A DNA stretch of 64,000 nucleotides from Chloroflexota bacterium (lineage in GTDB: Bacteria; Chloroflexota; Dehalococcoidia; SZUA-161; SpSt-899), in the NCBI GenBank assembly GCA_013203045.1, contig JABMQN010000003.1:18073-82072 (forward strand). The letters run 5' to 3'. Below the pieces are notes generated by a model. The model made no database searches and had not been told where the DNA came from. It saw only the letters and a program-made list of their open reading frames with translations. Made by a program: the position numbers and the translations under genes. Positions within the stretch are counted from its first letter, which is position 1. Each line of letters starts with the position of its first letter. Positions 16,688-63,847 of the stretch are shown piece by piece.

Positions 16688-16713
16688 CTGCACAAATGAG
16701 GTCGCCCGGAAAC

Positions 16714-16735: not shown

Positions 16736-16758
16736 ATAAACAAAGAGGGGGGATTGGT

Positions 16759-17043: not shown

Positions 17044-17082
17044 AGGCCATTATACTGGCATACTTCCAATTTATGGCGACGC

Positions 17083-17177
17083 TATGACTCTTTGACTAGC
17101 AATTATGCGCTAGCGGAGTGAGTCATAGGGAGGGGTATTTTTCACCCTCACCTAACCTCTCCCATCGAGGGAGAGGA
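17083..17177 (+). promoter_or_regulatory. structured 5' leader of enolase: three consecutive hairpins, the last being CCTCTCCC-ATCGA-GGGAGAGG, immediately before the GGGAGG RBS
   Basis: Inverted repeats read directly. Alternating SD-like (GGGAGG) and anti-SD-like (CCTC) tracts. Confidence 0.4.
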
Positions 17178-17182
17178 ACTAA

Positions 17183-18481
<1,299 letters not shown>

Positions 18482-23669: not shown

Positions 23670-23714
23670 TTCGCACAAAACAGTAAGGTAACCATTTGAA
23701 TGGGAGGTCTTGGG

Positions 23715-29147: not shown

Positions 29148-29225
29148 CGCGAGGCTTCAGCCTCGCACCCAAGCGATCCTGAAGAAGTAGGATGGGTGCA
29201 GCGAAGCATAACCCATCACAACTGA
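29141..29225. repeat. REP-like composite repeat (GAAACGTAGCGCGAGGCTTCAGCCTCGC ... GCGATCCTGAAG ...) overlapping the stop codon of the VOC gene
   Basis: Same motif as 7481-7570 and 16706-16735. Confidence 0.65.
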
Positions 29226-29305
29226 ACAATGATGATAACAGAGTGGATGGTGGGTTACATTGCATTTCACCCACCCTACCACTTGGAACGAAGGAGTCCA
29301 GGAAG

Positions 29306-31504
29306 ATGAGTAAAAGCAGCACGGAAAACGTTATTACCACTACTTGTGCCGCACACTGTGGCGGTGGTTGTCCTCTGAAAGCCCACGTTAAAGATGGTGT
29401 CATCACCAGGATCGAAGCGGACGATGATAGCGATAATACCCAGGTTCGGGCATGCTTGCGCGGGCGTTCTTGGAGGCAAAGGATATATCACCCCGATCGA
29501 CTCAAGCAACCAATGAAGCGTGTGGGGCCTCGAGGGAGCGGCCAGTTCGAACCGATCTCGTGGGATGAGGCTTTAGATACCATCGCCAGCGAGATCAAAC
29601 GGATCATCGATACTCACGGACCTGCTTCCATTGTTCACTGGGTGTCCGGTGGAGATCAGGGAATGCTGCATGACACCTGGCGGCGCATGAGTCGGCTTTT
29701 CTGCATGATGGAAGGAGGAGGTTACACTCGACCCTGGGGTTTGCATTCCTACGAGGGCGGTATATTCGCCGAACTTACCTGCTTTGGAATGGGCTGGACG
29801 GCTCATACCCGTGATGATTTTCTCAATTCCAAACTGATCATTATGTGGGGATGGGATCCGGCGACCACCATTCAGGATAGCAATACCGCATGGTATCTGG
29901 CTCAGGCCAAAGAAGCCGGAGTCAAGATCATATCGGTTGACCCAAGATTCACCGTCTCAACTGCTACATTCGCCAACCACTGGATACCCATCCGGCCAGG
30001 CTCGGATACGGCAATGCTGGTTGCTATGGCAAATGTGATGGTAACCGAAAACCTCCAGGACCAGGCATTCTTAGATAAGTTCACTGTTGGATTTGATGCG
30101 TTTAAAGATTACATTTTGGGCAATGAAGATGGTGTAGCTAAAACCCCGGAATGGGCATCCGAAATCACCAGAATCCCGGCGGATACCATCCGAAAACTAG
30201 CTCGGGAATATGCCACCACTAAACCGGCTGCACTCATTACCGGAATCGGGCCTGGACGAACGGCTTATGGTGAGCAATACCATCGAGCAGCTATCACACT
30301 GGCAGCGATGACCGGAAATATCGGCAAACCCGGCGGATCGTGTGGTGGCAAGTCATGGGGACCGCATGCTCTGGGAAGAATGGGATCGGGTCCCAAGATA
30401 CCGCCGAACCCAGTAGACCAGACCATTCCCAATCCGGAAGGCAAGCTTCCCAATCGTAATTATTATATTTATGGTTATGGTATCATCAATGTCTTTAGGC
30501 TCACCGATGCCATTATCAAGGGGAAATCCGGCGGCTACTCGGCCGACTACAAACTGCTATGGATAACCAATGCTAACCCTCTTAACCAATGGCCTAACAC
30601 CAACAAAACCATTGAGGCCTTTAACAAACTGGATTTGGTGGTTACTGAAGAGCAGTTCATGACACCAACGGCTCAGTACGCCGATATTGTGCTCCCATCG
30701 ACTACTTTCTTCGAAAGGGCCGATATTACCATGGGAGCCGCAGTGCCAGTCTTCTATGCCTATCGGAACAAAATCATTGAACCTATAGACGAAGCCAGAA
30801 CGCCGATGGATGTGGCCACTGAACTGGCTGAAAGGCTCAACTTAGAAGGTTTTAATGATAAAACTGACGAAGAATGGCTCGATGCGATACTCGAAAAAAG
30901 CACCGTCCCCGATCATGAAGCGATTAAAAAAGACGGTATCTATAAGATTGATCTTCCTGAACCCAATGTACCCTTCCGTGCACAGATTGAGGATCCGGAA
31001 AACAATCCCTTTTATACCCCTTCCGGAAAGATAGAAATCTACTCTCAGACCATCGCTGATATGAATGTGCCTGATTGCCCTCCGATTCCCAAATATATCG
31101 AACCGTGGGAGAGCCCGAACGATCCACTGGCAAAGAAATACCCTTTGCAGCTCATTACCACCCACACTCGAAGACGGGCACATACCCAATTTGATAATGT
31201 CCCCTGGTTACGAGAATTAGACCCGCATTCAATAAAGATAAATGTAATTGATGCTGAAGCCAGGGGGATCAAGGATGGTGATTTGGTTAGGGTTTTTAAT
31301 GATCGTGGTACAATGATTATTCCGGTAAAACTTATTGAAACGATCATTCCAGGGGTGGTCGATCTTCCTCAGGGTGCCTGGTTCGATCCTGATGAGAATG
31401 GAATTGATCGCGGTGGTTGTGCCAATGTACTTTCTATTGATAGACCTTCCCCCGGCGGGGCTTTACCTTCCAATACCGGTCTGGTTCAGATCGAAAAAGC
31501 CTGA
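29306..31504 (+). CDS. molybdopterin/tungstopterin oxidoreductase, MopB superfamily, cytoplasmic, copy 2
   Basis: N-terminal TTTCAAHCGGGCP...DGVITRIEADDD 4Fe-4S motif, ...YHPDRLKQPMKRVGPRGSGQFEPISWDEALDTIA..., and C-terminal molydop-binding domain. ATG 29306 with AAGGAG RBS. No Tat signal. Confidence 0.85.
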   Translation: MSKSSTENVITTTCAAHCGGGCPLKAHVKDGVITRIEADDDSDNTQVRACLRGRSWRQRIYHPDRLKQPMKRVGPRGSGQFEPISWDEALDTIASEIKRIIDTHGPASIVHWVSGGDQGMLHDTWRRMSRLFCMMEGGGYTRPWGLHSYEGGIFAELTCFGMGWTAHTRDDFLNSKLIIMWGWDPATTIQDSNTAWYLAQAKEAGVKIISVDPRFTVSTATFANHWIPIRPGSDTAMLVAMANVMVTENLQDQAFLDKFTVGFDAFKDYILGNEDGVAKTPEWASEITRIPADTIRKLAREYATTKPAALITGIGPGRTAYGEQYHRAAITLAAMTGNIGKPGGSCGGKSWGPHALGRMGSGPKIPPNPVDQTIPNPEGKLPNRNYYIYGYGIINVFRLTDAIIKGKSGGYSADYKLLWITNANPLNQWPNTNKTIEAFNKLDLVVTEEQFMTPTAQYADIVLPSTTFFERADITMGAAVPVFYAYRNKIIEPIDEARTPMDVATELAERLNLEGFNDKTDEEWLDAILEKSTVPDHEAIKKDGIYKIDLPEPNVPFRAQIEDPENNPFYTPSGKIEIYSQTIADMNVPDCPPIPKYIEPWESPNDPLAKKYPLQLITTHTRRRAHTQFDNVPWLRELDPHSIKINVIDAEARGIKDGDLVRVFNDRGTMIIPVKLIETIIPGVVDLPQGAWFDPDENGIDRGGCANVLSIDRPSPGGALPSNTGLVQIEKA

Positions 31505-40775: not shown

Positions 40776-42983
40776 CTAATCTTTATAAACCTTGCAGAGG
40801 AGCCCTCTGAAATAGCTGTTCCCGGCATAGTCGGAGAATCCAGGTTCGTCTGGGACGATAGCATCGATGTTCGATTCCCACACTCCGAATAAACTCGGTT
40901 CGGCTTCCTCTTTCTCAGGGAACCACCAGTAGCCGTCAGCGTGGACAACCTGTGGGGGCATTCCTTCCAATAGCTTCACCTTCTGTCTCACTTTCCCCAT
41001 TGGCGTTTCGACCCATGCCCAGTCTCCCTCGCTGATACCCAGTTCCTCAGCCTTTTCGGGACTGATCTCCATCACTGGGTCGGGATAACGTTTCCTTATC
41101 TTTTCAAGCTGTCTATGAGAGGAATGATGGAATTCCTTTACCCTCGAACCGCTAATCAGGATCAACGGGTATTCTTTCGCTAAGTCCGGTGTAGATATGG
41201 GGCTCCACGGCGGTTCCTCATAGCCTGCCAGTGGATCGTAGCCCAGTTGCTGTAATACAGTTGGCACCAACTCAACTTTGCCTGAAAAAGTAGCGAATCC
41301 GGTTTTTTCATACTTTTTGTATTCTTTAACCGGGAAGTAACCGGGAGTCTGAGCAAGTTCGCGGAGTGTGACACCGGCGGGTGCCAGCAGTTTATTCAGC
41401 CAACCTTCAAGTGTATCCGGCCAATTTTTTTCTTGTCCCAGCCGCTTACCCAGATCAGCCCATAACTGGTAATCGTCTTTTCGTTCGTACATGGGCTCGA
41501 CGATAGCCTCGCGTCCGAATTCAGAGCCTGTCATTCCCCACAGGTTAGTGATCGTGGGATGCTCCATGGCATCGGTGGCCGGCAGTACATAATCAGCGAG
41601 AGCCCCGGTTGGTGTGAGGAAATGATCCATGGATACATGCAACTCGAGATTATCACTCTTGAAAGCTTCGTATGCATGCCTGGAATCACCGATGGAGCAA
41701 AGCGTATTCGTACCCTGATCGAACACCGCCTTAATTGGGTAGGGCTTCTCAGTCAGGATTGCTTCCCAGCACGCATGAGGGGATGGATAGATGAAGTATT
41801 GCGCCGCTCCCCATCCTTTGGGATAGACACGCTTCATCGCTTCGTGGTAAAGGACTAAAGCCTTGACTGACCCTATCGATTGTTGATCGGCACTGACGGT
41901 ATCCCGGGTTCGCAGCGGGTGATTGATTTGACTGTCCCAATTCATCTCCTCCAGAAAAGCGGTATAATCCGGCGGAGTGCTGAAGACCTGGCCCCCTTCT
42001 CGATCCAGATTACCGGTTACGGCTCGAAGCCAGCATTTTCCCATCACCCCACTTAATCCAGCGCGATTGCCCAGGTGCGTATTGGCAACACCCCAGGTCA
42101 GGGCAGCCGCAGAAGCGTTGGCATACATTCGGGCAGCCTCGATGATTTTATCGGCGGGTACCCAGGTGATTTCCGAGACTTTCTCTGGAGTATACTGCTG
42201 AACGAGAGTCTTGAGTTCGTCAAATCCCAGGCACCACTTCTCGACGAACTCCTTATCATAAATACCTTCATTAATGATCACGTTCAACATGCCTAAAGCC
42301 AAAGCCCCATCCGTGCCCGGGCGAAGTTGCAGCCAGAGGTCGGCCGCTTTAGCGCAGGTGGTCGGCCTGGGGTCCACCACGATGATCTTCATCCCTTGAC
42401 TCTGCGAGTACTTGTATCCCTCCCACAGCCTCGGCTGAGATTCTGATGGGTTTGCTCCCCAGATAATCAGGACACCGGTTTTTTCAGGATTTAAAAATGT
42501 GGCCCAAGCTGCAATCGTGTCATAGCCATACATAGCGCATTCGACCGGGAATTCCGCTTCACCACAGTTCTTGCCGAGATGAAAGAAATTAGGCGTTCCC
42601 CAGAGATTGCACCATTTCCAGGCCGCCGGATCACCCGGCCCATGAGGGGAACCTCCGAGGACCAGTACAGCTTCCGGCCCATATCGATCGCGGATGCTCT
42701 CCAGTTTCGCTGCGATCTCATCCATCGCCTGTTCCCAGGAAATCCGTTCCCACTTTGCCTCTCCGCGTGCGCCTACCCTTTTCAGCGGGTAATTCATCCT
42801 TTTTGGATGGTCGTGGTATTCCACGCCGTTTACACCGCGGATGCAAAGGTGGCCCAGAACACTTTCACTGTCCGGTTGCACCTTAACCACTCTGTCATTG
42901 TCAATATGGGCAACGATATGACAGAAGGTGCCACACACCGGGCAAGTGCCTTTTCGAGTAGTTGTATTAGATTCTGTTACCAT
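40776..42983 (-). CDS. molybdopterin/tungstopterin oxidoreductase, MopB superfamily, cytoplasmic, copy 3
   Basis: CPVCGTFCHI...C 4Fe-4S motif, ...YPLKRVGARGEAKWERISWEQAMDEIAAKL..., and C-terminal barrel (WAWVETPMGKV). No Tat signal. Confidence 0.85.
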   Translation of the reverse strand: MVTESNTTTRKGTCPVCGTFCHIVAHIDNDRVVKVQPDSESVLGHLCIRGVNGVEYHDHPKRMNYPLKRVGARGEAKWERISWEQAMDEIAAKLESIRDRYGPEAVLVLGGSPHGPGDPAAWKWCNLWGTPNFFHLGKNCGEAEFPVECAMYGYDTIAAWATFLNPEKTGVLIIWGANPSESQPRLWEGYKYSQSQGMKIIVVDPRPTTCAKAADLWLQLRPGTDGALALGMLNVIINEGIYDKEFVEKWCLGFDELKTLVQQYTPEKVSEITWVPADKIIEAARMYANASAAALTWGVANTHLGNRAGLSGVMGKCWLRAVTGNLDREGGQVFSTPPDYTAFLEEMNWDSQINHPLRTRDTVSADQQSIGSVKALVLYHEAMKRVYPKGWGAAQYFIYPSPHACWEAILTEKPYPIKAVFDQGTNTLCSIGDSRHAYEAFKSDNLELHVSMDHFLTPTGALADYVLPATDAMEHPTITNLWGMTGSEFGREAIVEPMYERKDDYQLWADLGKRLGQEKNWPDTLEGWLNKLLAPAGVTLRELAQTPGYFPVKEYKKYEKTGFATFSGKVELVPTVLQQLGYDPLAGYEEPPWSPISTPDLAKEYPLILISGSRVKEFHHSSHRQLEKIRKRYPDPVMEISPEKAEELGISEGDWAWVETPMGKVRQKVKLLEGMPPQVVHADGYWWFPEKEEAEPSLFGVWESNIDAIVPDEPGFSDYAGNSYFRGLLCKVYKD

Positions 42984-51866: not shown

Positions 51867-53771
51867 ATGAGCGAGTTTGGATATGCTGGTCAAATCCTAA
51901 AAGTTGATCTCTCCGAAGGGAAGATCACCACGCTCCCAACGGCTGATTATTCCGATAGATTCCTCGGCGGCCGAGGCGTAGCTGCCAAGATATATTGGGA
52001 CGAAGTTCCTCCTCAAACCAAGTCTCTTTCCCCGGGGAATTACCTCATTTTTGTTAATGGACCTCTGGCCGGATTCACTCGTTTAGCGGGGTCTCGATGG
52101 CAAATATGCGGAAAATCCCCTGCGACGCAGCCGGAGCAGTTTTCCTATGCGAATGCGGGTGGCAGTTGGGGTGCGTGGCTGAAGTTCGCAGGCTTCGATG
52201 GTATTGCCGTCACTGGCAAATCGGATACACTCGTGTATTTGTGTGTGAGAGATGGCCAATGCGAAATTCGGGATGCTACTCATTTGGCGGGCAAGAGCAC
52301 CATCGAAACACGGCAAATACTGAAGCAATATCTGGGGAAGGATACGAGGGTAGTGGCAACTGGCCCTGCGGGTGAAAACCAGGTCTCCTTCGCAACACTG
52401 CTGGCGGACGAAGACTCCAGTGCTTCTGCTGGCTTTGGTGCGGTGATGGGTTCGAAGAATCTTAAAGCTATCGCAGTGATTGGCGATAAAAAGCCCATTG
52501 CTGCCGATCCCGAGAGACTCAAAGAACTGGCCGATCAGATAGCCCAATTGCGTAAAGGTACCCACGAAATGTACACCCCGGCAATACCGGGCCGAACCAA
52601 GCGTACAGCTTGCTATGGATGTCCCACTGGCTGCACTCGTCAGATTTATACGGCTGACGATGGAGATCGGGGTAAATTTTTCTGTGAGTCTCTTGCCTTT
52701 TATCTCAAGCAGGCTCAGGAGTATTATGGAGACTGGCCTGAACCTTCATTTTACGCTAACAGGCTTTGCGATAAATACGGCCTCGATACCGCTGTGATGG
52801 AACCGATGATCATCTGGCTTTCCCGATGTTTTAAAGAAGGCGTTTTATCGGAGTCGGAGACAGGTCTACCGCTATCCAAGATTGGGAGCAATGAGTTCAT
52901 CGAAGCACTCGTTCGCAAAATTTCTCTACGAGAAGGTTTTGGCGACGTGCTTGCTGATGGGATCATACGGGCCGCACAATCGGTGGGCGAAGAGGCAGAA
53001 CACCTGATCGGTGATTGTATTGCTACGAAAGGCAATGAGGTAAGAACGTATGATCCCCGGTTGTACAATATCACCGCGCTTCTTTACGCTACAGAACCGA
53101 GGCGGCCGATTCAGCAACTCCACGAGGTGAGCATTACGATATCTGAGTGGATTCAATGGCAGAAAGGCGGCAAAGATTCGTTCCTTTCATCCGAGTCCTT
53201 TCGCGATATATCAAAGGAATTCTGGGGAAGTGAAGCTGCGTTTAACTTCATGACCTTGGATGGAGCGGCGCTCGCAGCCAAGATGATTCAAGATCGGACA
53301 TATGCTAAAGAAAGCCTGATTCTTTGCGACTTTCTCTGGCCGATCATGTGGGTCCGGTATTCAGAAAACCATGCCGGAGACCCAACCCTTGAGGCTAAGG
53401 TTCTATCAGCGGTTACTGGCACCCAGGTGGATAGAGAGGAGCTTGATCGCATAGGCGAAAGAATTTTCAATTTGCAGAGGGCTATCCTGGTCCGAGAGGG
53501 GCGCAGGGGAAGGGAAGGAGATACTCTTTTGGATTTCTTTCATACCGATCCACTGGAGTTTGAGGTCTTGAATCGCAGACTTCTGGTTCCCGGGAAAGAT
53601 GGTGAGCCTATATCCCGCAAAGACGCGATACTGGAGAAATCCGACTTCGAACGTTTGAAGGATGAGTATTACGAACTTAGAGGTTGGGATGTTGCCACTG
53701 GACTTCAAAAACGAGAGAAGCTGGTTGAACTTGGGCTTGAGGACGTAGCTCCCGAATTGGATACTAATTGA
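51867..53771 (+). CDS. tungsten-containing aldehyde:ferredoxin oxidoreductase (AOR family)
   Basis: GYAGQILKVDLSEGKI...LGGRG N-terminal domain and CYGCPTGC 4Fe-4S motif. Confidence 0.88.
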   Translation: MSEFGYAGQILKVDLSEGKITTLPTADYSDRFLGGRGVAAKIYWDEVPPQTKSLSPGNYLIFVNGPLAGFTRLAGSRWQICGKSPATQPEQFSYANAGGSWGAWLKFAGFDGIAVTGKSDTLVYLCVRDGQCEIRDATHLAGKSTIETRQILKQYLGKDTRVVATGPAGENQVSFATLLADEDSSASAGFGAVMGSKNLKAIAVIGDKKPIAADPERLKELADQIAQLRKGTHEMYTPAIPGRTKRTACYGCPTGCTRQIYTADDGDRGKFFCESLAFYLKQAQEYYGDWPEPSFYANRLCDKYGLDTAVMEPMIIWLSRCFKEGVLSESETGLPLSKIGSNEFIEALVRKISLREGFGDVLADGIIRAAQSVGEEAEHLIGDCIATKGNEVRTYDPRLYNITALLYATEPRRPIQQLHEVSITISEWIQWQKGGKDSFLSSESFRDISKEFWGSEAAFNFMTLDGAALAAKMIQDRTYAKESLILCDFLWPIMWVRYSENHAGDPTLEAKVLSAVTGTQVDREELDRIGERIFNLQRAILVREGRRGREGDTLLDFFHTDPLEFEVLNRRLLVPGKDGEPISRKDAILEKSDFERLKDEYYELRGWDVATGLQKREKLVELGLEDVAPELDTN

Positions 53772-54015: not shown

Positions 54016-55734
54016 ATGAGAGATGAAAAGAAAACCAAAGCAAAACTCATCGAAGAACTGCAACAGATGCGCTATAGAGTGGCCGAATTGGAGGCCCCAG
54101 AAACAGGACGCAAGCAGACGGAGGAACAATTGAGAATCCTCTCATCGGTAGTTGATCAAAGTGTAAACTCAATTGCCGTACTCGACAATGAAGGCAATGT
54201 TGAATACGTGAATTCGAAACTGCTTGAGCCATATGAAATTAATCCCGAGGAAATCATTGGTACAAACTGGCGGTCCTTTCTATCTGAACATTCCTCTCTG
54301 AGAAGCCGGTATGACGAAATGCGAAGCACTGTTCTGGAAGAGGGGGAAGTATGGAGAGGAGAAGTCTCAGATAGAACAGTGAACGGGGAAACAATATGGA
54401 GAGAAGCGACTGTTTTCCCAATTGTAGATGCGAGCGGAACGGTTACCCATTCCGTGTATATGAGCCAGGACATTACTGATCGCAAACAGGCAGAGCAAGA
54501 GCGAGTACGGTTAACTGCAATTCTAGAGAACACCAGCGACATGGTTTCTACGGCGCTGCCAGACCAACGAATAACCTATATGAACCGAGCGGGAAAAGAA
54601 ATGCTTGGCTGGCCAAATGAAAACATCTCTATAGATAAAGATATTCACATGGCTCATCCGCAGTGGGCTGCTGAAATGATTGAGAAAGAAGGTGTTTCCA
54701 CAGCGATCCGCGATGGTATCTGGAGAGGTGAGACTGCGTTGTTGGGTACCAATGGCACCGAGATTCCGGTTTCACAGGTGATCATGTCTCATAAGTCTTC
54801 AACCGGCGAATTGGAATACCTGTCCACCATCATTCGAGATATCAGTGAGCGCAAGCAGGCAGAGGAAGTAATGAGACAAAGCGAAGAAACCCTCAAAGTA
54901 TCTCAGGAGATCGGCCATATCGGCAGTTGGAGCCTCGACCTGGAAAAAAACGATCTGTTGTGGTCTGACGAGGTCTACCGGATATTCGGATTGATGCCTC
55001 AGCAGTTTGACACCACGTATGAGGTGTTTTTAGAAGCAGTTCATCCGGATGATAGGGAGATGGTCAACTCGGCTTATACCACTGCTATTAAAACTCATGC
55101 TCCCTATGAAGTGGTCCACAGGGTCCTGAGACCGAACGGGGAAGTGAGAATTGTCCGAGAAAAATCGGTAGACATTGCAGACGAATCTGGAAGGATAGTT
55201 CGATCTGTCGGAATGATACATGATATTACCGAGCAGAAGCTGGCCGAGGAGGCCCTGAGGGACAGTGAAGAGAAACTCCGCAGTATTCTTGAATCATCTC
55301 CCGATGCCATTACCGTCACTAATCTGGAGGCAAAGCTGACCGATTGCAATCCCGCAACTCTGTCCATGCACGGTTTTGATACTATGGAAGAACTGATCGG
55401 CATGGATACCCTTGAGTTAATAAAGCCGGAAGATCATCAAAGGGCGGTGGAAAATATCCAAAGAACTTTGGATCAGGGTACCGCGAAGAATATAGAATAC
55501 ACTTTTTTAAGAAAAGACGGAACTGAATTCTTAGGAGAAATTTCCGCAAGCGTGATTCGGGATGTGTTTGGCAATCCGGTTTCCTTCGTGGCCATAACAA
55601 AAGACATCGCTGAGCGCAGGCAAGCGGAGGAAGTACTGCGGGAATCGGAGGGAAAATTCAGAAGCATAGTCAATTCCTCCCCGATGGGGATGCATATGTA
55701 CCAACTGGAATCCGACGGACCGCTTCAAAGGTGA
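54016..55734 (+). CDS. multi-PAS/PAC sensor protein lacking any recognisable output domain
   Basis: Coiled-coil N-terminus followed by about four PAS/PAC repeats. Ends ...MHMYQLESDGPLQR with no HisKA/HATPase/GGDEF/EAL. ATG 54016 (the track extension runs through the terminator hairpin). Confidence 0.7.
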   Translation: MRDEKKTKAKLIEELQQMRYRVAELEAPETGRKQTEEQLRILSSVVDQSVNSIAVLDNEGNVEYVNSKLLEPYEINPEEIIGTNWRSFLSEHSSLRSRYDEMRSTVLEEGEVWRGEVSDRTVNGETIWREATVFPIVDASGTVTHSVYMSQDITDRKQAEQERVRLTAILENTSDMVSTALPDQRITYMNRAGKEMLGWPNENISIDKDIHMAHPQWAAEMIEKEGVSTAIRDGIWRGETALLGTNGTEIPVSQVIMSHKSSTGELEYLSTIIRDISERKQAEEVMRQSEETLKVSQEIGHIGSWSLDLEKNDLLWSDEVYRIFGLMPQQFDTTYEVFLEAVHPDDREMVNSAYTTAIKTHAPYEVVHRVLRPNGEVRIVREKSVDIADESGRIVRSVGMIHDITEQKLAEEALRDSEEKLRSILESSPDAITVTNLEAKLTDCNPATLSMHGFDTMEELIGMDTLELIKPEDHQRAVENIQRTLDQGTAKNIEYTFLRKDGTEFLGEISASVIRDVFGNPVSFVAITKDIAERRQAEEVLRESEGKFRSIVNSSPMGMHMYQLESDGPLQR

Positions 55735-55981
55735 ACGTGACCCCACAATCAGCACATTGCAGTTCTCTATCAGTGAAACTCATTGAATGACCTCCTTTTT
55801 AAGAATTGTGAACTGAACTTTGGTCATTGATTTGTATGGTAATAACTTGGGGAGATGATACTACACCGCATATATAGCAAGGCATTTCGATCACAATCCA
55901 AAAGTCTTGGTTTAGGGGTAAAGACCTGCTCAAGTATGAGGTGTTACCAATTATAACGTTTAAGCAGTATTAGTACTAGCT

Positions 55982-56116
55982 CTACCCGATCCTAAACACC
56001 TTCGTCTTACACTTACCACACGTACCCTTAGTGGCTGGCCTGCCGTTCTTCATCTTGACCTTCTTGGGACTCTGGATCTCAACCTTCTTGCGGCATTTCA
56101 TGCAATACGCAGTCAT
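55982..56116 (-). CDS. 44-aa zinc-ribbon protein (MTAYCMKCRKKVEIQSPKKVKMKNGRPATKGTCGKCKTKVFRIG), DUF5679-like
   Basis: Not in ORF track. ATG 56116 with GGGAGG RBS, TAG at 55982. CxxC...CxxC ribbon. Confidence 0.6.
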   Translation of the reverse strand: MTAYCMKCRKKVEIQSPKKVKMKNGRPATKGTCGKCKTKVFRIG

Positions 56117-56574
56117 AAGAATACCTCCCTTTAAATAAAGGCTGCTTATCTACAAGACGAGTGGCAACGTGCGGAAGTTCCTTGATGGGCCTATGACAGA
56201 TAGCGGAAAGGTGATTCTCAGATCGTTAAACGCACGAGAATAACTGTAGGGGCGAGTTTAGGTTTCTAGGGTAGGCCCTCACTAGGTTGGGCATTGTTCA
56301 CCTTCAGCAAAACTCAAGATACAGAGAGAATCACCCACTACACTGAGCCTCTTGCAAAATTCTGTGGAACAGGCTTGAGACTTGCAATTGATTAAGAAAG
56401 ACAGGCCCAATATGTTTTTACAACCACGCAAGCCTGGAAATTGTCTGCCTTACCCCAATAATTGAGGTAAATAGAGCTATTATCTTTGTTTTTGCCGTTT
56501 CTTGAGCATACTTCCCCTTTTGCAACCGCGTTTGGCGCATTTGAAAACTTCTCTTTTCGTTATCAAGTAAGAAA

Positions 56575-57726
56575 CTATGTGGCAGCAAGACGTAACAGTT
56601 GATCGGCTGTTAGCGCCAACATGCCAAACATCAAATGAGTCATTACTTTAGCATGCCCCCGAACTCGTATCATCCTCCCACCAAACTCGTCCTTCAAGCG
56701 ACCATACACTCTCTCAACACTTGTTCTCTCTTTGTATCGACGGCTCTCAGGCCGTTCAAAGTGAAGAAATTTGAAACGTCGAGCTTCTGCCTTCAAATCC
56801 TCTTTCAGTTCCGTATTCCGCCGTGGATTGATATCCACAATCGGTATATGCCCCAGTGATTTGCTGTACTCTCTGATAACCGGAGCATCATAAGCTGAAT
56901 CCATCAAGTCATATAGGTTGGTAACCCGTTGGTTCGTCACAGATGCCAGAGGTAATGACACTTGGCTGTCATGAACTGAGGCTGAAGTCAGAATACAGCT
57001 AACGGGAATCTGACCGTCTGCAACATCGATGTGAAGCTTGTATCCAATCCAAGTCTCTTTGTGGCCCTTGCTGTTCTTCTTCGTGCCAACATCACACTTA
57101 TTCGGCAGGTCATCCAGCATTTCATCTACCGTTGTCATGGTTTGCTGGCGCTCCAATCGAGTTGTCACTTTCGCCCGTTCCTCACCCTTCTTGGGACGAC
57201 CACGTTTCTGCTTCAAAGATTCCATCTCTGATTCAGCTTTTAATTTCTTCTCCGGCTTTTCCCGAACTTCAATCTCCGTCGAATCCCGAGAGATATGCCC
57301 TACGATATCCTCGGACAGATTATTGACAATCAATGCTTCGTGGACATGTGTCGATAATTGAGTTTCCGAGAACTCTTCATAAGCTCGCGAGAAGGTTGCT
57401 TCGCTTGGTATATCACTCTTCATTTCCCATCCGCAAATACGACGCAACTTATTGTCACATTCAAGACGGTCCAAGAGTGCACGTGTTGTCGGCATATTGT
57501 ATACAGCTTTGGCAACAAAAGCTCGCGCTACAGGAGCACGCTCCTCCGGCGGCCTTCCTCGTAAGCTGTTATTGAGGGCAACAAACCTCTCGATTCGAAT
57601 CATGTCCAATGTGACTATAAGTTTCTGCTCTTTCTCGGTCAATTTGCCAAATGATTCCTCAAGCCAGGGGAAAAGACTCCCTTGTATCTTCAGCCAATAT
57701 CCAGATATTCTCTCAACTAACTCCAC
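56575..57726 (-). mobile_element. IS4/IS5-type DDE transposase gene (insertion sequence; ends not defined)
   Basis: 383-aa protein with N-terminal HTH region and DDE region (...HIDVADGQIPVS...DSAYDAPVIREY...). Terminal inverted repeats could not be identified by eye. Confidence 0.65.
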
Positions 57727-57937
57727 AGATGATCTCCTTCTCGTTTATCTACACTCTCATTTTACCCTAATCAATGGAGATCAAACCATTATTGTACAGT
57801 CGAATAATTATGCCTCTTTACCGACTTTTGCAAGAGGCTCCACTGTTAATCATTTTTCGTACTCCAATCCGCCCCAAGGTAACAAACTGTATACTTTGTT
57901 ACCCACTCGTTGAAATCGGCCAAATTCTAAATGTGTC

Positions 57938-58027
57938 TTGACAATTCACTTTATTATATGTAGAGTAATTCCACATTATATATGTTAATATGTTGACAAA
58001 TACAACTATAATAAGTATCATATGTAG
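57938..58027 (+). promoter_or_regulatory. two sigma70-like promoters (TTGACA-17-TAGAGT and TTGACA-17-TATCAT), each overlapped by a TATATGTAG box; a third inverted box CTACATATA sits at 58298-58306 after the gene
   Basis: Hexamers and 9-mer repeats read directly in an AT-rich leader of the C2H2 gene. Confidence 0.45.
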
Positions 58028-58064
58028 ATGCAATCTATAAAAAGATATTAAGGATGTAGCATAA

Positions 58065-58283
58065 ATGAGTTACGCACAATATCGACCACCACGCCGACTA
58101 TGGATCTGTCCTGTCCCAGGCTGTGAATCGAATTTCGAGGAACGTTGGCGACTAAAGCGGCACCTCAAACTTACTCATAGACTAGGTGAAAGAGACGCTA
58201 CCATCACAGCCGAGAGGTCGGAATACTGGCTACGGTTGGGATATGTGAATCCCCGCACCTTTTTTGGTGATGAAATGGATTAA
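58065..58283 (+). CDS. small C2H2 zinc-finger protein (CPVPGC-x13-H-x4-H)
   Basis: WICPVPGCESNFEERWRLKRHLKLTH is a classical C2H2 finger spacing. 72 aa. Confidence 0.6.
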   Translation: MSYAQYRPPRRLWICPVPGCESNFEERWRLKRHLKLTHRLGERDATITAERSEYWLRLGYVNPRTFFGDEMD

Positions 58284-58359
58284 ATTATTACGATGCTCTA
58301 CATATAGGCTATGCACTGTCTTTGAAAATATGTAATTAGTACTTTGGGAGATCAATGTA

Positions 58360-58875
58360 ATGGACAACATAGATCGCTTGGAAAAATTATTGGACGGTAC
58401 AAATTTCATGGCTTTCCCGGATTTAAATTCTCTGGATCCTATGAAAGATTTTGAGGATCACAACACTGGGGAGTGGGAAAAACTCGGTAATGACAAGGCT
58501 GAAAGGATTAGGGGCTTAATATGGGCGATTGCGGCGGACAAGCTACAGCCGATGGCTTTTGAGAAATGGGGCAACACCAGTGACTCGGCGGTAAAAGATG
58601 TGCTTCAGGAGACGCTAAATGAAAAACTGGGGGAACTCGAACGTAATACGGACTGGCAGCATGTAATCAAGAATGTAAAAAACTACCTTATGAACGAGGA
58701 GCAGTGGACTCCAGAACAAGTCGAACAATTGATTCATTTCTGCCTAATTGATTACTGGGTGGATTTCTGCGCTGATGGCGTTAAAAGTTGGGAGCTATTA
58801 CCACGAGCCAACGTTTGGGAGATAGTCGATTTACTGGCCAGCTTGTATAGGGAGGTCAGCCTTGGCAATAATTGA
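58360..58875 (+). CDS. hypothetical protein (acidic, helical)
   Basis: 171-aa ORF with good coding look. Overlaps the start of the serine recombinase by 14 nt (co-transcribed). Confidence 0.55.
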   Translation: MDNIDRLEKLLDGTNFMAFPDLNSLDPMKDFEDHNTGEWEKLGNDKAERIRGLIWAIAADKLQPMAFEKWGNTSDSAVKDVLQETLNEKLGELERNTDWQHVIKNVKNYLMNEEQWTPEQVEQLIHFCLIDYWVDFCADGVKSWELLPRANVWEIVDLLASLYREVSLGNN

Positions 58876-60997
58876 TGATATATTAATCTCTTTAAACACT
58901 AGGGGATCAAAACCAAGCGAATCAGATCTGCGGAAACTCCCTTTCAGAAAAGCAGACATCTATGGAAGGCAGTCGGATCCCAGCCAAGTACGTGATCACA
59001 AACAATCCCTTCTCGAAATTGCAGACTTGGTGGAACTAGCTAAAAATGATGGGTACAAGAGTGAACTAACCAAAGAACAAGTTGAAGCATGGCTACTATC
59101 AATTCAACGAGGGGAGACGGAGAAAGGCGTATTGGTTAATGGTGATATTATGGTTGATGTTCGGGATTTGGGGATTTCCGGGCAGTTGTCCGCTGAATAC
59201 CGTGAGGGATTGACTGCCCTTATCAACGGAATTGAGAATAACGAGATTGGTTCTGTTTATGTAGCTGAACCCAGTCGACTTACTCGTGATAGAGAAGGTC
59301 TTCAGCCGCCCATTTTTCTCCGCTTGTTTAAAACTCACTTCTGCAGAGTTAGAACGCCAGAAGGTACTTGGAACGCAGCTATACCTGCGGACTGGGAATA
59401 TCTCCACGAAGAATTTCAATTGGCGAGAAAGGAGAATATACACTTCGGGCGACGTTTATACCGAAAAAGAAAAAAGAAAGCAGGAAACGGCGATTATGTA
59501 GGGGAACCTGTCACATTGGGTTACAAATTGAAAATCCTACGTATTAGCTCGAATGGGAGGTACGAATTTGGGAGAATGGAACCGTACGCCCCTCATGCTG
59601 AGATTGTGAACGAAATACTTAGGGAGTATTTAAACCAAGACGGAAGCTGGCAAAGAACTGCCCAAGCACTAAAGGGCACCATAATCCCATTCTTTGAACC
59701 TGAACTCAATTATATGTGTAATTACTCAGTGTTGAGGCAGTGCACTGAGTTGGCAGATGGTTATAAAATAACACCTACACTGATCAAAGGAGTTGTGAAG
59801 AATCCCAAGATTATAGGTATTCATTATTGGGGAGACACAGTTCCAATTGCACATAATCATGAACCTATCGTGTCTGAGGAGTTATTTACAAGAGCCTATA
59901 CGGTGGCAACTAGAAAAGGCAAACCCAAGGGAAAAACTGTAAGATTTGAGCCTCTTGTGCTCTCTGGTCTCCTCATGTGCTGCGAACATCAAGAACCAAT
60001 AGTGATGTCAAGCAATCGCAAGGAAGGGCGCTATAGATGTGATCGTGGATATCGATCTGGCCAAGACCATCATTGTATGCTCATCACTGATCACCTTGTT
60101 GATGAGCCTGTTACATCGGCGATACTCGGGCAGTTGGATTTAACACCATTCGCTCAGGAGGTACTAGACAAATTTGAGACAGACGTTGCACAGGTCAACG
60201 TTGAAAAAATGAACTATCGAAAGAAAGTATCCGAATTGAAACAGAGGTTGGAAAATCTCAAACCGTATTTGGGATGCGGAGATCCAAAGCGAGAGGATAT
60301 ATACTGGGATTTGTACCAGGAAACTCTGGATACTATAAATGACCTTCAGGCCAAACCGCCTTCAGATATCACAAAAAGTAAAGGGACAGACATTACCAAA
60401 TTACGAATGTTCCTTTCAGAATTACCTAAGAACTGGCAATTATTCAACCATAGCCAACAGAATCGGTTTATAGGACTCTTCATTGATAGGATTGATGTAT
60501 GGCACAAGGATCGTCGAATCGATTTACAGATCATTTGGAAAAACGGTTTTGTACAATCATTGACAATAGATCTCCCAAAGGCTAATAACAAACTTGGCAA
60601 TGCATGGACGTCTCAAGAAAAAAACCTTCTTAGATTACTATGGCGGGATTACTCGAGAGAGGATATCCAAGGTGCATTACCCAATCGAAGTTGGGGAGCC
60701 ATTCAGAGCCAAGCGCATGTCATGAAGCTAAAGCGTCAGGTCGGCCATAGTAATCGGACTTACCATGGCCCATGGACAGATGCAGAGGAAGCAAATGCCA
60801 GGAAACTTTGGGAATTAGGAATTCGAAAAGAAGAAATTGCCCATGCAATCGGCAGAGGTGAGAACAGTGTCGCACAGAAAGCACGGCGCTCTGGATGGAA
60901 ACGCCCAGAGCATTTCAGGAAAAAGACCAGCAAGGTGTTATGCGTAGGTGAAAAGTTAGAAGTTCTGCAAGGATTGCCTTCCCAAGGTCGATGGTGA
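58862..60997 (+). CDS. large serine recombinase (resolvase catalytic domain + recombinase domain + zinc ribbon/coiled coil) with two C-terminal Myb/SANT-like repeats
   Basis: Catalytic IYGRQS and RLTRD motifs. Cys cluster CCEHQ...C. C-terminal repeats WTSQEKNLLRLLWRDY...W and WTDAEEANARKLWELG...W. TTG start with GGGAGG RBS. Confidence 0.8.
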   Translation: MAIIDDILISLNTRGSKPSESDLRKLPFRKADIYGRQSDPSQVRDHKQSLLEIADLVELAKNDGYKSELTKEQVEAWLLSIQRGETEKGVLVNGDIMVDVRDLGISGQLSAEYREGLTALINGIENNEIGSVYVAEPSRLTRDREGLQPPIFLRLFKTHFCRVRTPEGTWNAAIPADWEYLHEEFQLARKENIHFGRRLYRKRKKKAGNGDYVGEPVTLGYKLKILRISSNGRYEFGRMEPYAPHAEIVNEILREYLNQDGSWQRTAQALKGTIIPFFEPELNYMCNYSVLRQCTELADGYKITPTLIKGVVKNPKIIGIHYWGDTVPIAHNHEPIVSEELFTRAYTVATRKGKPKGKTVRFEPLVLSGLLMCCEHQEPIVMSSNRKEGRYRCDRGYRSGQDHHCMLITDHLVDEPVTSAILGQLDLTPFAQEVLDKFETDVAQVNVEKMNYRKKVSELKQRLENLKPYLGCGDPKREDIYWDLYQETLDTINDLQAKPPSDITKSKGTDITKLRMFLSELPKNWQLFNHSQQNRFIGLFIDRIDVWHKDRRIDLQIIWKNGFVQSLTIDLPKANNKLGNAWTSQEKNLLRLLWRDYSREDIQGALPNRSWGAIQSQAHVMKLKRQVGHSNRTYHGPWTDAEEANARKLWELGIRKEEIAHAIGRGENSVAQKARRSGWKRPEHFRKKTSKVLCVGEKLEVLQGLPSQGRW

Positions 60998-61306
60998 CAT
61001 CGAACGTATCGCCGTCTACTACCCTATTCACATGAGCTTTGTATGTGTAGTTTAGATTCATTGTGCCCCTTCAATTTTGGTGCTCATTATAACACTTTAA
61101 TTTGATCAGGGAAAACTGGCAATCAAAACCGTGCAAAATGGAATATGCTTTTCTATGTCCGCACGATGATGGCAAATCACTACGGGGGATTAAAAACGGT
61201 CTTGACTTGATCACCATCTTCCTCCATACTATCATGAAAACGATGTTCGATGAATGCTCTGTAATTCTTCCTTGTTGAAAGATTACTGATATCCAGAGGA
61301 ATAGAT

Positions 61307-62803
61307 GTGAAATCGGTCTTCAGTTTAGTCTGCGGCATACTGGTGATAGTTTCTTTATATTTGCCATGGTGGAATTTTGGTATTGAAGTCTCCGGATGGG
61401 AAGTGTTAGGAGAAACAGAGCTTTGGTGGGTAGGTAATACTGGACCGATAATTACTTTAGTTGGCGGGATCGTGCTGATTGGATGTGCACTGGCGGCTTT
61501 GATAGTGACCAGATTTAGATCTGAAGCAAAAAATGTATTTGCTGTGTTGCGAATACTTCCACGGATTGCTGCGTTCCTTGTTGTAATGGGTGCGGTTTGG
61601 TACATAATTGATGCCAGGGATTCAGATATGAGGGGTTGTGGAGGCATTTTACCTTTCGACTGGACTGGATTTGGAACTTGGCTTGCTATCGAGGCAGGTT
61701 TGGGGGGGTTGCTTGTAGGGGTGACTGTACCTTCCAGGTCCAAAATGTGGAGGCGGGAGTATGGAGAGAGTGTTAGTAAAGGTTCTCCTATGACATCTGG
61801 GGTGAGGGATTACAGTTTTCACGAAGATAGATTAGCGGGTCCGGTAAGGGCCTATGGCTCAGCTAAGGAGCATTTCAATCGAGCGAGTGATTCCCAGTCT
61901 GCAGGCAAGGATTCCCAGGCTGTTGTTGAGTATGACACTGCCATCAAACTCGACCCAAATTATACTTTGGCTTATTTCAATCGTGGTACACTACTCCTGT
62001 CGCAGGGCAACAAGAAAGATGCAATCGCTGATTTCGAAAAGGTTATCGAACTCTCTGATGATCCGGACCTTGCCAAAATGGCCCGGCATCGCATAAATGA
62101 AGCGAGTGTTACAAGTGATGAAAAGGAGTCTGGCTCTGTGATGCAAGGGGGACAACTGGAAAGTGGCGAAAAGGTCCCTGTCGTCGATCCCCATAGTTTA
62201 GCAAAAAACCATTTCGATAGAGCTTGCGATTACGAGGCCAGAGGAGACGATGATCGGGCTATTCAGGCGTACACTCAGGCTATTGACAGTGACTCCAAAT
62301 ATTCTTTGGCCTATTTCAACCGTGGATCACTCCGCTTATTGAGAGGAAGTGCGCCTGAGGCTATTACAGACTTTGAAAAAGTCCTCAAACTATCGACTGA
62401 TGATAATCTAACTCGCATGGCGCAAAAACGCCTTGATGAAGCAATGGCTACACTTAATCAAGAAGTCTCGGCTCCCGAATTGGCCAGGCAGTCTGATGAA
62501 AGCACTGCGGGAGATAAAGGGTCTGATCTTGGTAGTACGGCAAGGTACCATTTTAATCGGGCACGTGATTGTGAGTCCAAAGGAGATGATGAACTGGCTA
62601 TTGCAGCGTACAGTCAGGCTATCGTATCTGAACCTGATAAAGCCATAGCTTATTTTAACCGAGGTTCTCTTCATCTTTTACATGAAAATAAAGCTGAGGC
62701 TATCGCGGATTTCGAAAAGGTCATTGAGCTTTCCGATGATGATAACATGGTCGAAATGGCGCAGAATCGTATCAGTGAATTGAATGAGCAAGAGTGGGAC
62801 TAG
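61307..62803 (+). CDS. membrane-anchored TPR-repeat protein (N-terminal 4-TM domain + 4 tandem ~95-aa TPR-containing modules)
   Basis: N-terminal hydrophobic segments. Repeated module ...A(I/Y)xxYxxAIxxDxxYxLAYFNRG(T/S)L(L/R/H)L..G...AIxDFEKV(I/L)(E/K)LSxDD(P/N)(D/N)L..MA... Confidence 0.7.
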   Translation: MKSVFSLVCGILVIVSLYLPWWNFGIEVSGWEVLGETELWWVGNTGPIITLVGGIVLIGCALAALIVTRFRSEAKNVFAVLRILPRIAAFLVVMGAVWYIIDARDSDMRGCGGILPFDWTGFGTWLAIEAGLGGLLVGVTVPSRSKMWRREYGESVSKGSPMTSGVRDYSFHEDRLAGPVRAYGSAKEHFNRASDSQSAGKDSQAVVEYDTAIKLDPNYTLAYFNRGTLLLSQGNKKDAIADFEKVIELSDDPDLAKMARHRINEASVTSDEKESGSVMQGGQLESGEKVPVVDPHSLAKNHFDRACDYEARGDDDRAIQAYTQAIDSDSKYSLAYFNRGSLRLLRGSAPEAITDFEKVLKLSTDDNLTRMAQKRLDEAMATLNQEVSAPELARQSDESTAGDKGSDLGSTARYHFNRARDCESKGDDELAIAAYSQAIVSEPDKAIAYFNRGSLHLLHENKAEAIADFEKVIELSDDDNMVEMAQNRISELNEQEWD

Positions 62804-62926: not shown

Positions 62927-63847
62927 ATGAGATCAATCGTCAGTTTGGTTAGTGGGATAGTGGTGGTGGTAGGAGCATTGTTTGTGTCTTGGCTTAGTGT
63001 TGTTGAGAGTGGAGGCCAGGACCGTGTAACCAGGTTATTCGGTCGCGAAATAATCGGTGGGGATGCAGAATTGGTAAGCACAAGTGGGCCTATCCTCACA
63101 GTTATCGGTGGTGTATTGCTAATCGTCATCGCACTTGTTTCTTTTATAATGGTTATGGCGAATCTCAGGGCACGGAGAACTTATTTGACTTTATCACTTG
63201 GAGCCAGGTTGGCTGCGCTGCTGGTTATTGCGGGTGCTACTTTGTATTTTACTGATGTTACGGATAATAAGGCGGGTTTGGAGGAATACTATTATCCAGA
63301 TGGAGCGAAAGTGATGATTGAAGAAGGTGTTTTCATCAGTCTTTTTGGAGCCTTGCCTGGATTGATCATCGGTGTTACTACGCCGTTCTCGGTTTGGAAT
63401 ATGCTGTTTCGCAGGAGAGGTGACGAGGAAGGCACTGAAGGCCGGATAGCTACTCCAGTTCAGCGGCGAGAAGAGTACTACACCAACGGAGAAGCTGTTG
63501 ATGGACTCACCTTGAGAAAAGGGTATAGCGAAAAGCTCAAAGGAACTGCTGACGAGGTTCCTTCTGGAACACCGGAGGAGCACTTTACAAGAGCGGTACG
63601 TTATGAGGCGGAGGGGAAGTATGACGAAGCAATTGATGAATACGATGCTGCGATCATCGGCAACGCGAATTATCCACTAGCTCATTCCAATCGAGGTTCG
63701 CTTCATTTGGTCTTGGGGCACAGTGTAAAAGCTCTCTATGATTTCGAAAAGGTAATCGAGTTGTCTGATGATCCCGACCTTGCAGCGATGGCGCAAGATC
63801 GCGTTGATGAATTGAACGAACAGACCAGTGATGATAGCATGGTATAA
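62927..63847 (+). CDS. membrane-anchored TPR-repeat protein, paralog with a single C-terminal TPR module
   Basis: N-terminal TM domain similar to 61307..62803 (SLVSGIVVVVGALFVSWL; ...GPILTVIGGVLLIVIALV). C-terminal ...YPLAHSNRGSLHLVLGHSVKALYDFEKVIELSDDPDLAAMAQDRVDELNEQ. Confidence 0.7.
   Translation: MRSIVSLVSGIVVVVGALFVSWLSVVESGGQDRVTRLFGREIIGGDAELVSTSGPILTVIGGVLLIVIALVSFIMVMANLRARRTYLTLSLGARLAALLVIAGATLYFTDVTDNKAGLEEYYYPDGAKVMIEEGVFISLFGALPGLIIGVTTPFSVWNMLFRRRGDEEGTEGRIATPVQRREEYYTNGEAVDGLTLRKGYSEKLKGTADEVPSGTPEEHFTRAVRYEAEGKYDEAIDEYDAAIIGNANYPLAHSNRGSLHLVLGHSVKALYDFEKVIELSDDPDLAAMAQDRVDELNEQTSDDSMV

Follow-up and report, generated by a model that had tools for sequence, protein, structure and literature searches.

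The stretch of DNA analysed here, called the window below, is 64,000 nt of contig JABMQN010000003.1 from a metagenome-assembled genome (MAG) of a Chloroflexota bacterium of the class Dehalococcoidia, and it carries a three-gene operon whose last and largest gene encodes a large serine recombinase. We consider it probable that this locus is the integrase-proximal end of an integrated element, made up of a canonical recombinase core with an added pair of Myb/GcrA-like helix-turn-helix (HTH) domains and a coupled partner protein, and that the left end of the element is gone. What is new is the Myb-like tandem on a complete large serine recombinase together with a conserved, coupled orphan partner, found almost only in Chloroflexota. 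Already known are the enzyme class, site-specific integration that interrupts a gene, and, in Dehalococcoides, an integrase open reading frame (ORF) that crosses the attachment (att) site. The three ORFs named in an earlier reading of this DNA from its letters (hereafter the original prediction) were all found, all on the plus strand; they and the right-hand junction are listed here.

58065-58283, plus strand: 72-aa protein with a single C2H2-type pattern (C15-X4-C20-X12-H33-X4-H38)
58360-58875, plus strand: 171-aa orphan all-alpha partner of family A, with a 14-nt overlap between its end and the start of the recombinase
58862-60997, plus strand: 711-aa large serine recombinase, an ORF with a TTG start, identified by Pfam, alignment, PHROG and an SPbeta profile match
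60958-60981, plus strand: P arm, the element side of the right junction, AGAAGTTCTGCAAGGATTGCCTTC, which also encodes recombinase residues ~700-707
60981..60982: right junction between element and host (attR-type), inside recombinase codon 707, placed by the break in homology to empty sites
60982-61061, minus strand: first 27 codons of an SNase-like nuclease gene, MNLNYTYKAHVNRVVDGDTFDVTIDLG, with intact homologues in the empty sites
61122-61094, minus strand: promoter-like site, from a promoter scan

Insertion into a nuclease gene

The element is inserted site-specifically, in antisense orientation, at codon 27 of a chromosomal SNase-like gene. The original prediction had held that the boundaries of the element were not visible in the window and had suggested comparison with related genomes lacking the insertion. 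That comparison overturns the first statement: two empty sites, L030 and L036, fix the right junction to the base, between 60981 and 60982, within the last codons of the recombinase. Eight metagenome contigs contain a match to a degenerate DNA pattern for DGDTFDVTIDLG; two of them, L030 and L036, carry an intact 111-aa gene whose N-terminus is almost that of the window fragment. The L030 protein matches Pfam SNase (3.5e-9), and the genes beside it are ordinary chromosomal ones (an FKBP isomerase, an amidohydrolase and a ComEA-like gene). L036 matches the window at 79% identity over 1.2 kb, between 62172 and exactly 60982, through a gene for a membrane protein with tetratricopeptide repeats (TPR), and the match to L030, at 89% identity, ends at the same base. 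With both of these sites empty, the locus is not conserved as core in all relatives, which upholds its reading as an integrated element that related genomes lack. Because the junction falls in codon 707, the last four codons of the recombinase (Q-G-R-W) and its stop are host DNA.

L028, whose recombinase is the closest relative of the one in the window, occupies the identical position and is a second, independent occupant of the site. Past the recombinase stop the DNA of the two is ~90% identical, though the recombinases themselves are 56% identical as proteins. In a four-way alignment the host sequence (...ATCGACCTTGG) continues with ATTTCG or ATTCCG where the site is empty, whereas the window and L028 both have GAAGGCAATCC at this place. 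On the element side, positions 60959-60981 are identical to L028 at 21/23 nt, as against only ~70% over the recombinase genes as a whole, a degree of conservation that fits a shared attP arm. The empty-site attB reads ...ATCGACCTTGG directly followed by ATTTCGTATCAC... (also written GTCACCATCGACCTTGGATTTCGTATCACTAC), and the right junction of the window is ...GGATTGCCTTC joined to CCAAGGTCGATGG; in sequence terms, an unoccupied site would join ...CGTATCACTACATTCC... to ...CCAAGGTCGAT. The conserved DNA 3' of the recombinase stop was also considered as an RNA, a candidate that was dropped: Rfam has no match at E<=1, and the stretch proved to be host coding sequence on the other strand.

The recombination site overlaps the 3' end of the recombinase gene, so that the ORF runs over the junction and the recombinase ends in host sequence. 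In the history that we propose, attL and the remainder of the nuclease gene would have been lost from this copy, leaving a scar.

The recombinase core

Residues ~30-150: catalytic domain
Residues 246-347: Recombinase domain
Residues ~367-570: zinc ribbon and coiled coil
60605-60724, plus strand (residues ~582-621): C-terminal repeat 1, a Myb/SANT-like three-helix bundle
60773-60895, plus strand (residues ~638-678): C-terminal repeat 2, a three-helix HTH like those of GcrA and sigma-70 region 4

The reading of the 711-aa protein as a large serine recombinase holds on three counts: the resolvase residues, the Recombinase domain, and a ribbon and coiled coil that align with SPbeta integrase. Both catalytic motifs of the original prediction were located, IYGRQS at residues 33-38 and RLTRD at 139-143, and the 21 aligned recombinase homologues, the family members to which the counts below refer, all have R36, S38, R139, R142 and D143. 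Pfam Recombinase (PF07508, the first DNA-binding domain, DBD1) scores 35.4 bits against a cut-off of 21.1 and is matched by 16/21 members. Pfam Resolvase scores 21.1 bits, slightly below its cut-off of 23.3, and is matched by 15/21, at best with 4e-9. The match to Zn_ribbon_recom is weak (E=0.041); the zinc-ribbon residues C373, H376, C393 and C405 are conserved in the family alignment. PHROG integrase phrog_95 covers recombinase residues 93-604 (1.6e-43), and the family profile aligns with SPbeta integrase (9dxh; E=4e-12) over profile positions 110-550, to residue 515 of 545. Because this alignment spans the region, we judge the zinc ribbon with its inserted coiled coil (the second DNA-binding domain, DBD2) to be present. 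From these features the predicted activity of the enzyme is recombination of attP with attB.

The TTG start is credible because a GGGAGG Shine-Dalgarno sequence lies 6 nt upstream of it, within the 3' end of the 171-aa gene. The overlap of the two genes was correctly predicted; it measures 14 nt and is the same in L028.

All family members share an insertion of ~30 residues in the catalytic domain (recombinase residues ~60-100; 59040-59160), between the motif of the nucleophilic serine and the DLGISG motif. We know of no such insertion in typical resolvase domains.

The Myb/GcrA-like tail

In the profile alignment, ~160 extra C-terminal residues follow the end of SPbeta integrase. The original prediction saw in this tail two Myb/SANT-like repeats, an extra module for a large serine recombinase, and Pfam matches of family members, profile matches in the Protein Data Bank (PDB) and an AlphaFold model all uphold it. 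The repeats are not the ordinary coiled coil or zinc ribbon of such enzymes; they begin where SPbeta integrase ends. Scanned singly, 9/21 family members match Pfam Myb_DNA-binding (best 1.3e-7), three of the 21 match GcrA, others match sigma-70 region 4 or HTH_38, and some match HTH_7, the 'HTH of resolvase'. When a profile built from the last 140 residues was run against the PDB, it matched c-Myb R1-R3 with two repeats aligned (3.3e-8), MYB3 (5e-6), B-Myb and GcrA (4e-4), and in the whole-family profile the last ~160 residues match the tandem-HTH protein 2lvs and Trichomonas MYB3. An AlphaFold2 model of the tail alignment consists of two three-helix bundles (pLDDT ~90) with a flexible linker between them. 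By Foldseek, repeat 2 superposes on the DNA-binding domain of GcrA (TM 0.89, root-mean-square deviation 1.1 A, 34% identity), and the tail bundles match the Myb repeats of Cef1/CDC5L and the bipartite DNA-binding domains of the Tc3, Mos1 and IstA transposases.

One detail of the original prediction fails: the W...W...W spacing that it gave for the repeats differs from the canonical tryptophan triad of Myb. That triad (three tryptophans ~19 residues apart) is not kept in the family; W582 and W638, which start the two repeats, are invariant in the 21 recombinases, and the alignment to 1h88 has other residues at the positions of the second and third Myb tryptophans. Because only the first tryptophan of each repeat is invariant, 'Myb/SANT-like' is an accurate name and 'Myb' is not. 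Repeat 2 is nearer to GcrA and sigma-70 region 4 than to Myb. The pair would give the recombinase a third DNA-binding module, which may recognise an extended or accessory sequence, for instance the upstream palindrome described below, or may autoregulate the operon.

The repeat type as such is common in prokaryotes. The tail profile matches 34,046 cluster representatives at E<=1e-3, many of which carry the repeat 5-15 times in tandem; a further match is phrog_323, 'transcriptional regulator, D5-like'. None of ten matches scanned from the top 150 has a recombinase domain. What is unusual is the fusion of such repeats to a serine recombinase, and we found no description of a Myb-like tail fused to a serine recombinase in the literature searched.

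Eight of the ten scanned matches (P0035, P0105, P0132, P0134, P0139, P0173, P0119 and P0128) belong to a widespread class of superfamily 2 (SF2) helicases, with ResIII and Helicase_C domains followed by C-terminal Myb/GcrA-like arrays. Proteins built solely of up to 15 such repeats also exist, P0027 being one.

The coupled partner and the first gene

The 171-aa gene, which the original prediction offered as a possible directionality factor or targeting partner, is borne out as a partner by conserved synteny and by translational coupling (the 14-nt overlap and the Shine-Dalgarno sequence). In 21/29 loci, counting the window, a plus-strand ORF of one of two partner families lies directly upstream of the recombinase; wherever this ORF was called, it abuts the start of the recombinase or overlaps with it. 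Family A fills this place in the window, L028, L026, L008, L010 and L009, with proteins of ~171-193 aa; family B, of 230-290 aa, does so in most other loci. By profile search, 39 proteins of family A were retrieved, 75-204 aa long (most 168-204); Pfam has a domain in none of them, and neither partner family contains a resolvase domain. AlphaFold gives the 171-aa protein six helices in an all-alpha fold (pLDDT 81). It has no meaningful match in Pfam, NCBIfam, PHROGs, the PDB (by sequence profile and by Foldseek) or BFVD, and it resembles no known family of recombination directionality factors (RDFs) in those same collections. Common ancestry of the two partner families was examined and set aside, because hhalign gives it a probability of 6%, confined to a short C-terminal motif.

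Three genes make up the operon in most loci, and the first of them varies from locus to locus: it encodes the C2H2-pattern protein in the window, a 79-aa protein in L028 and an AbrB/MazE-like protein in six loci. The 72-aa protein of the window, a C2H2 regulator in the original prediction, agrees with that name in its full pattern, C15-X4-C20-X3-F-X5-L-X2-H33-X4-H38, and has no homologue in the other loci compared; its Pfam matches lie below the cut-offs (FOXP-CC, 21.5 bits, 3e-4; ZNF451 C2H2, 15.3 bits, 0.02). The 79-aa protein of L028 is, as read from its sequence, a putative HTH protein of the excisionase/HTH_17 type. We propose that the operon would be headed by a small, interchangeable DNA-binding protein, here of C2H2 type, expressed from promoters with operator-like repeats, and that the partner most likely modulates the activity or direction of the recombinase by protein contact.

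A more specific role for the 171-aa protein, as the RDF of this integrase, is possible, and we hold it only tentatively. It adjoins the recombinase on the same strand and is translationally coupled to it, and the same place is taken by one of two partner families in most loci. Known RDFs share no common fold (PMC11795197), so that the absence of PHROG, Pfam, PDB and BFVD matches, which might count against the role, is not evidence against it. However, obligatory co-translation would fix the stoichiometry of the two proteins, which suits a constitutive subunit or chaperone better than a switch, and the place is filled by two apparently unrelated families, with partner and recombinase shuffled between elements. 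The small first-gene product, including the presumed excisionase of L028, is an equally good candidate.

DNA upstream of the operon

57877-57903: near-perfect palindrome of 27 nt, AGGTAACAAACTGTATACTTTGTTACC, conserved with L028 529-555; candidate protein-binding site
57938-58028, plus strand: two sigma-70-like promoters, TTGACA-17-TAGAGT and TTGACA-17-TATCAT (scores 10/12 and 11/12)

The palindrome is identical to its counterpart in L028 at 18/22 positions and is the sole non-coding stretch conserved on the left-hand side between the two elements. Its core pattern occurs once in the window, against an expectation of 0.02, and among 41 loci it is found in L028 and in identical copies of this element only. 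Its pattern also has 97 matches in viral contigs, which we take to be chance, given the great size of that collection. Since the window and L028 elements begin with unrelated first genes, the palindrome would more probably be bound by a protein common to both, either the recombinase, perhaps through its Myb-like pair, or the partner.

A second motif, ATATGTAGA, stands at 57956-57964 and 58020-58028, where it runs into the -10/+1 regions of the two top-scoring sigma-70-like promoters, and in inverted orientation at 58297-58305, just after the C2H2 gene. These three copies are the only ones in the window and lie within 350 nt of one another, against 0.34 expected in 64 kb; none of 100 shuffles reached three. 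They look like an operator set.

Distribution and insertion targets of the family

A search of 5.8 billion proteins returned one identical protein, annotated 'recombinase family protein' of a Chloroflexi bacterium and encoded on an 82-kb contig, and 23 relatives (~24 clusters), mostly of 708-730 aa and 36-56% identical to it; the few with a named source come from Dehalococcoidia or Chloroflexota assemblies. When one genome per species was scanned, 23 loci were obtained, 22 of them in Chloroflexota MAGs, mostly Dehalococcoidia, and one in an entry titled 'uncultured delta proteobacterium'. Two MAGs carry two copies of the module each. IMG/VR viral contigs held no family member.

In several loci, as in the window, the recombinase gene borders with its 3' end on an antisense gene that is represented by its N-terminal part. 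The scan for targets covered antisense ORFs abutting the recombinase end, and hence we claim no orientation bias.

L001: phage portal gene (Pfam profile positions 18-194 of 416)
L011 and L012: 274-aa gene (uninterrupted in L001), with the breakpoint 12-17 nt short of the recombinase stop
L013: BcrA/BadF-type ATPase gene (positions 2-230 of 271)
L015, L018 and L024: ArdC-like gene, interrupted at one shared position (ArdcN, 5.9e-15)
L017: tyrosine recombinase gene
L020: DnaN-like gene, read from sequence only

In these other clades, too, the recombinase ORF crosses the junction, with the portal gene, the 274-aa gene (L011 and L012), the BcrA/BadF ATPase gene, the ArdC-like gene and the tyrosine recombinase gene as targets. 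The other half of the target gene was not found upstream of the module in L013, L017, L019, L020, L028 or L018. To the right of the family member in L001, positions 12096-17916 form a decayed prophage-like stretch that contains the portal fragment, DUF7769, a SocA/Panacea toxin-antitoxin gene and the 274-aa gene that is the target in L011 and L012.

The left side of the element

55722..55723: scar J1, where a PAS sensor gene (plus strand) meets a zinc-ribbon gene (minus strand) head-on with no spacer, both without their 3' parts
55723-55783, minus strand: N-terminal fragment of the zinc-ribbon gene, 21 codons, by match to the L005 homologue
55985-56116, minus strand: 44-aa DUF5679 zinc-ribbon gene (PF18930 is annotated on the identical gene in L038/L039)
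56345-57840, minus strand: IS5/IS1182-like insertion sequence (IS), with its transposase at 56575-57726

The original prediction had counted a truncated sensor gene and an upstream transposase as signs of the mobile element. The sensor does mark a breakpoint, but what lies there is a scar of two truncated genes with no recognisable att site. The sensor is cut at the start of its fifth PAS domain, lacks an output domain, and ends ...MYQLESDG and then PLQR before its stop; the minus-strand zinc-ribbon gene reads MSFTDRELQCADCGVTFTFEA and then diverges from its full-length L005 homologue (MSFVDKSLQCSDCGITFTFSAEEQEFF...). That zinc-ribbon fragment is probably the leftmost surviving piece of the element, and the DUF5679 gene, which lies in the low-GC stretch left of the IS, is possibly part of it. 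We group 55723-56344 with the module rather than with the chromosome because its GC content is 0.437, compared with 0.428 in the module and 0.484 in the core chromosome to the left.

The transposase, instead of testifying to the element, belongs to a self-contained IS that arrived later and is unrelated to it. It matches DDE_Tnp_1 (1.6e-14) and DUF772, and NCBIfam IS1182/IS5 models below their cut-offs. The IS has its own terminal inverted repeats of 21 nt (56345-56365 and 57820-57840, 90% complementary) and is flanked by a perfect 4-bp target duplication, CACT, at 56341-56344 and 57841-57844, because of which we regard it as a simple later insertion into DNA that was once contiguous on both sides. 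It was inserted 32 nt left of the conserved palindrome of the recombinase operon. IS-mediated deletion was rejected as the cause of the scar, since the target duplication is intact and the IS lies 620 nt from the scar.

This side is most simply read as the outcome of a deletion or rearrangement in which attL, the element's left part and the host DNA next to it were lost, so that the copy was stranded. Because the left attachment site and the remaining nuclease gene are gone and a scar is left, the copy is probably immobilised. Regular-expression search and tblastn of the window did not recover the 84 codons that the nuclease gene lacks (its C-terminal part, FRITTFQRLRLVKVNTPEIRG...). Neither the other half of attB nor an inverted copy of the P arm occurs anywhere in the 64 kb, and searches of the window and L028 for a P' arm or B arm gave best matches at chance level (18-19/30 and 13/24). 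The only meaningful repeats around the module are the ends of the IS, and none link its two sides.

Weighing the reading

Several results weigh against reading the locus as the end of an integrated element with a dedicated partner and a Myb-like tail. The left junction, the P' arm and the second half of the target were not found beside the module in the window, L028, L013 or L018. No circular form or attP was seen. The window's own recombinase has no Pfam Myb match at E<0.1, so that the Myb call rests on the family profile and the structure model. Families A and B fill one partner slot and, with the 6% from hhalign, are not demonstrably homologous. The modules are mosaic, with partner and recombinase swapped between elements: L011 (370-2982) and L012 (1143-3755) have recombinases 92% identical in DNA and partners 36% identical in protein, and in L014 (4756-5583) and L017 (132-949), two copies in one MAG, 81% identity is confined to the upstream regulator region, the recombinases being too diverged for blastn. 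Finally, it is conceivable that the scar arose in assembly, although it is present in two assemblies.

That last point leads to an account in which the join at 55722/55723 is chimeric and the real genome holds the complete element, which we think improbable. The source is a MAG, the join is abrupt and without a spacer, and the contig L039 from the Joint Genome Institute (JGI) begins ~80 nt right of the scar. Yet the same join is present both in the 82-kb NCBI contig and in the independent 60.7-kb JGI contig L038, whose sample record is a different one, and no repeat that would mislead an assembler lies at the join.

A different account would dispense with the lost left end. The three-gene module, with ~0.2-1.6 kb upstream of it, might be a compact, autonomous serine-recombinase unit of ~3.1-3.8 kb, 'IS-like' in its habit, whose junctions are not those of simple insertion, since copies might recombine with each other or with secondary sites and so give deletions or inversions. 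We regard this account as unlikely. Its attraction is that many homologues sit on contigs of 2.5-5 kb, or 35-300 nt (downstream) and 1.1-2.0 kb (upstream) from contig ends; that a Logan unitig of 3415 nt holds exactly the three genes of L001; that the distance from scar to junction in the window, less the IS, is 3759 nt, like the sizes of those contigs; that an ordinary epimerase gene lies 400 nt left of the module in L018; and that two MAGs have two copies each. Short contigs are, however, normal in these metagenomes. The presumed left end has no terminal repeat, P' arm or complement of the target gene; in the window it consists of a truncated gene, which would be unexpected for an intact end. 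A fixed site within each clade is also the behaviour of an integrase and not of a transposon.

The fullest form of the compact-unit account we hold to be just as unlikely. A recombinase with a Myb tail, a partner and a swappable DNA-binding protein would form a self-sufficient cassette of ~3-4 kb that inserts antisense into the 5' part of specific genes; its targets would often be genes of other mobile elements (portal, ArdC, tyrosine integrase, DnaN-like and nuclease genes); and it would complete its own ORF from the target, the one-sided junctions arising from deletions or rearrangements as products. If true, this would be a lifestyle of serine-recombinase elements not yet described, in which the Myb pair and the partner supply extra site recognition.

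In Bacillus, the skin and SPbeta elements control genes through excision of an intervening element, and a domesticated developmental or regulatory recombinase could likewise control the nuclease gene here. The host gene is interrupted precisely, and with the left att site missing the element is not currently mobile by itself. We consider this account very improbable, for the nuclease gene cannot be restored without attL, related genomes have the intact gene and no element, and in other clades the interrupted genes are unrelated, several of them of phage or plasmid type, with multiple copies per genome.

Comparison with known systems

By description and layout, the closest known system to the element end that we favour is the DsiB/DsiA integration module of the Dehalococcoides ssrA islands (PMC3146451). 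These islands, from the same bacterial class as the window, are mobile and polymorphic between strains; their large serine recombinase, DsiB, lies at the extreme edge of the island and is co-transcribed with a smaller partner gene upstream (PMC3146451). The DsiB ORF crosses the att site, with its stop outside the island (PMC3146451), just as the recombinase ORF of the window runs over the att site at its 3' end and stops in host DNA. In contrast, DsiB has ~540 aa, is CcrB-like and has no reported Myb domains (PMC3146451); DsiA is a small serine recombinase, whereas the partner here lacks a resolvase domain; the target of DsiB is the gene for transfer-messenger RNA (tmRNA), with a 20-bp direct repeat, and here it is an SNase-like gene. 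The six-gene module of the ssrA islands (RecF, ParB, Mom and others) is absent here.

The phage integrases SPbeta SprA/YokA, A118/LI, phiC31 and Bxb1 share the catalytic domain, the recombinase domain and the zinc ribbon with coiled coil, and A118 integrase matches the family weakly. Like the present family, they insert site-specifically inside a host gene, and related enzymes share one attB. They differ in lacking the ~160-residue Myb/GcrA-like tail, the ~30-residue catalytic insertion, the att-crossing ORF and the coupled partner. Serine transposases of the TnpX/TndX type (the DUF4368 clade; PMC10083194) also have an extra C-terminal region and form small elements, but the present family has no DUF4368 match and keeps to one fixed position per clade instead of using many targets.

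Three-helix HTH modules in tandem, joined to a recombinase and serving to recognise DNA specific to the element, are also found in the bipartite HTH domains of Tc3, Mos1 and IS21 IstA, with which the C-terminal HTH of small serine resolvases and invertases may be grouped. Unlike the HTH pairs of DDE transposases, the pair here is added to an enzyme that already holds two DNA-binding domains. The prokaryotic Myb/GcrA-repeat proteins, including the SF2 helicases with Myb arrays, have the same repeat type and no recombinase.

For the insertion of large DNA payloads, large serine recombinases are the principal tools, and it is two DNA-binding domains that determine their choice of target. A lineage with a third, tandem Myb-like module is a natural test case for how extra DNA-binding domains bear on site recognition, and a coupled partner from an orphan fold family is one for what cofactors can do. 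The host-completed integrase gene, first seen in the vinyl-chloride islands of Dehalococcoides, is extended to other Dehalococcoidia and to other targets. For the genome of the window itself the meaning is modest: one stranded element end inactivates a small nuclease gene.

Chromosomal surroundings

A large island running leftward through the window was considered and rejected, because the left 50 kb contain PriA, peptide deformylase, enolase and other housekeeping genes. No tRNA or tmRNA gene lies in the 64 kb. To the right of the junction lie two paralogous genes in tandem (61307-62803 and 62927-63847); their products are membrane proteins that have transmembrane segments at the N-terminus and TPR repeats at the C-terminus. 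Homologues of these TPR genes adjoin the nuclease gene in the empty sites L030 and L036, and the adjacency of the two genes is therefore ancestral. To the left of the element, within 30 kb, are three molybdopterin oxidoreductase genes and one aldehyde:ferredoxin oxidoreductase gene (23700-25934, 29192-31504, 40776-42983 and 51867-53771).

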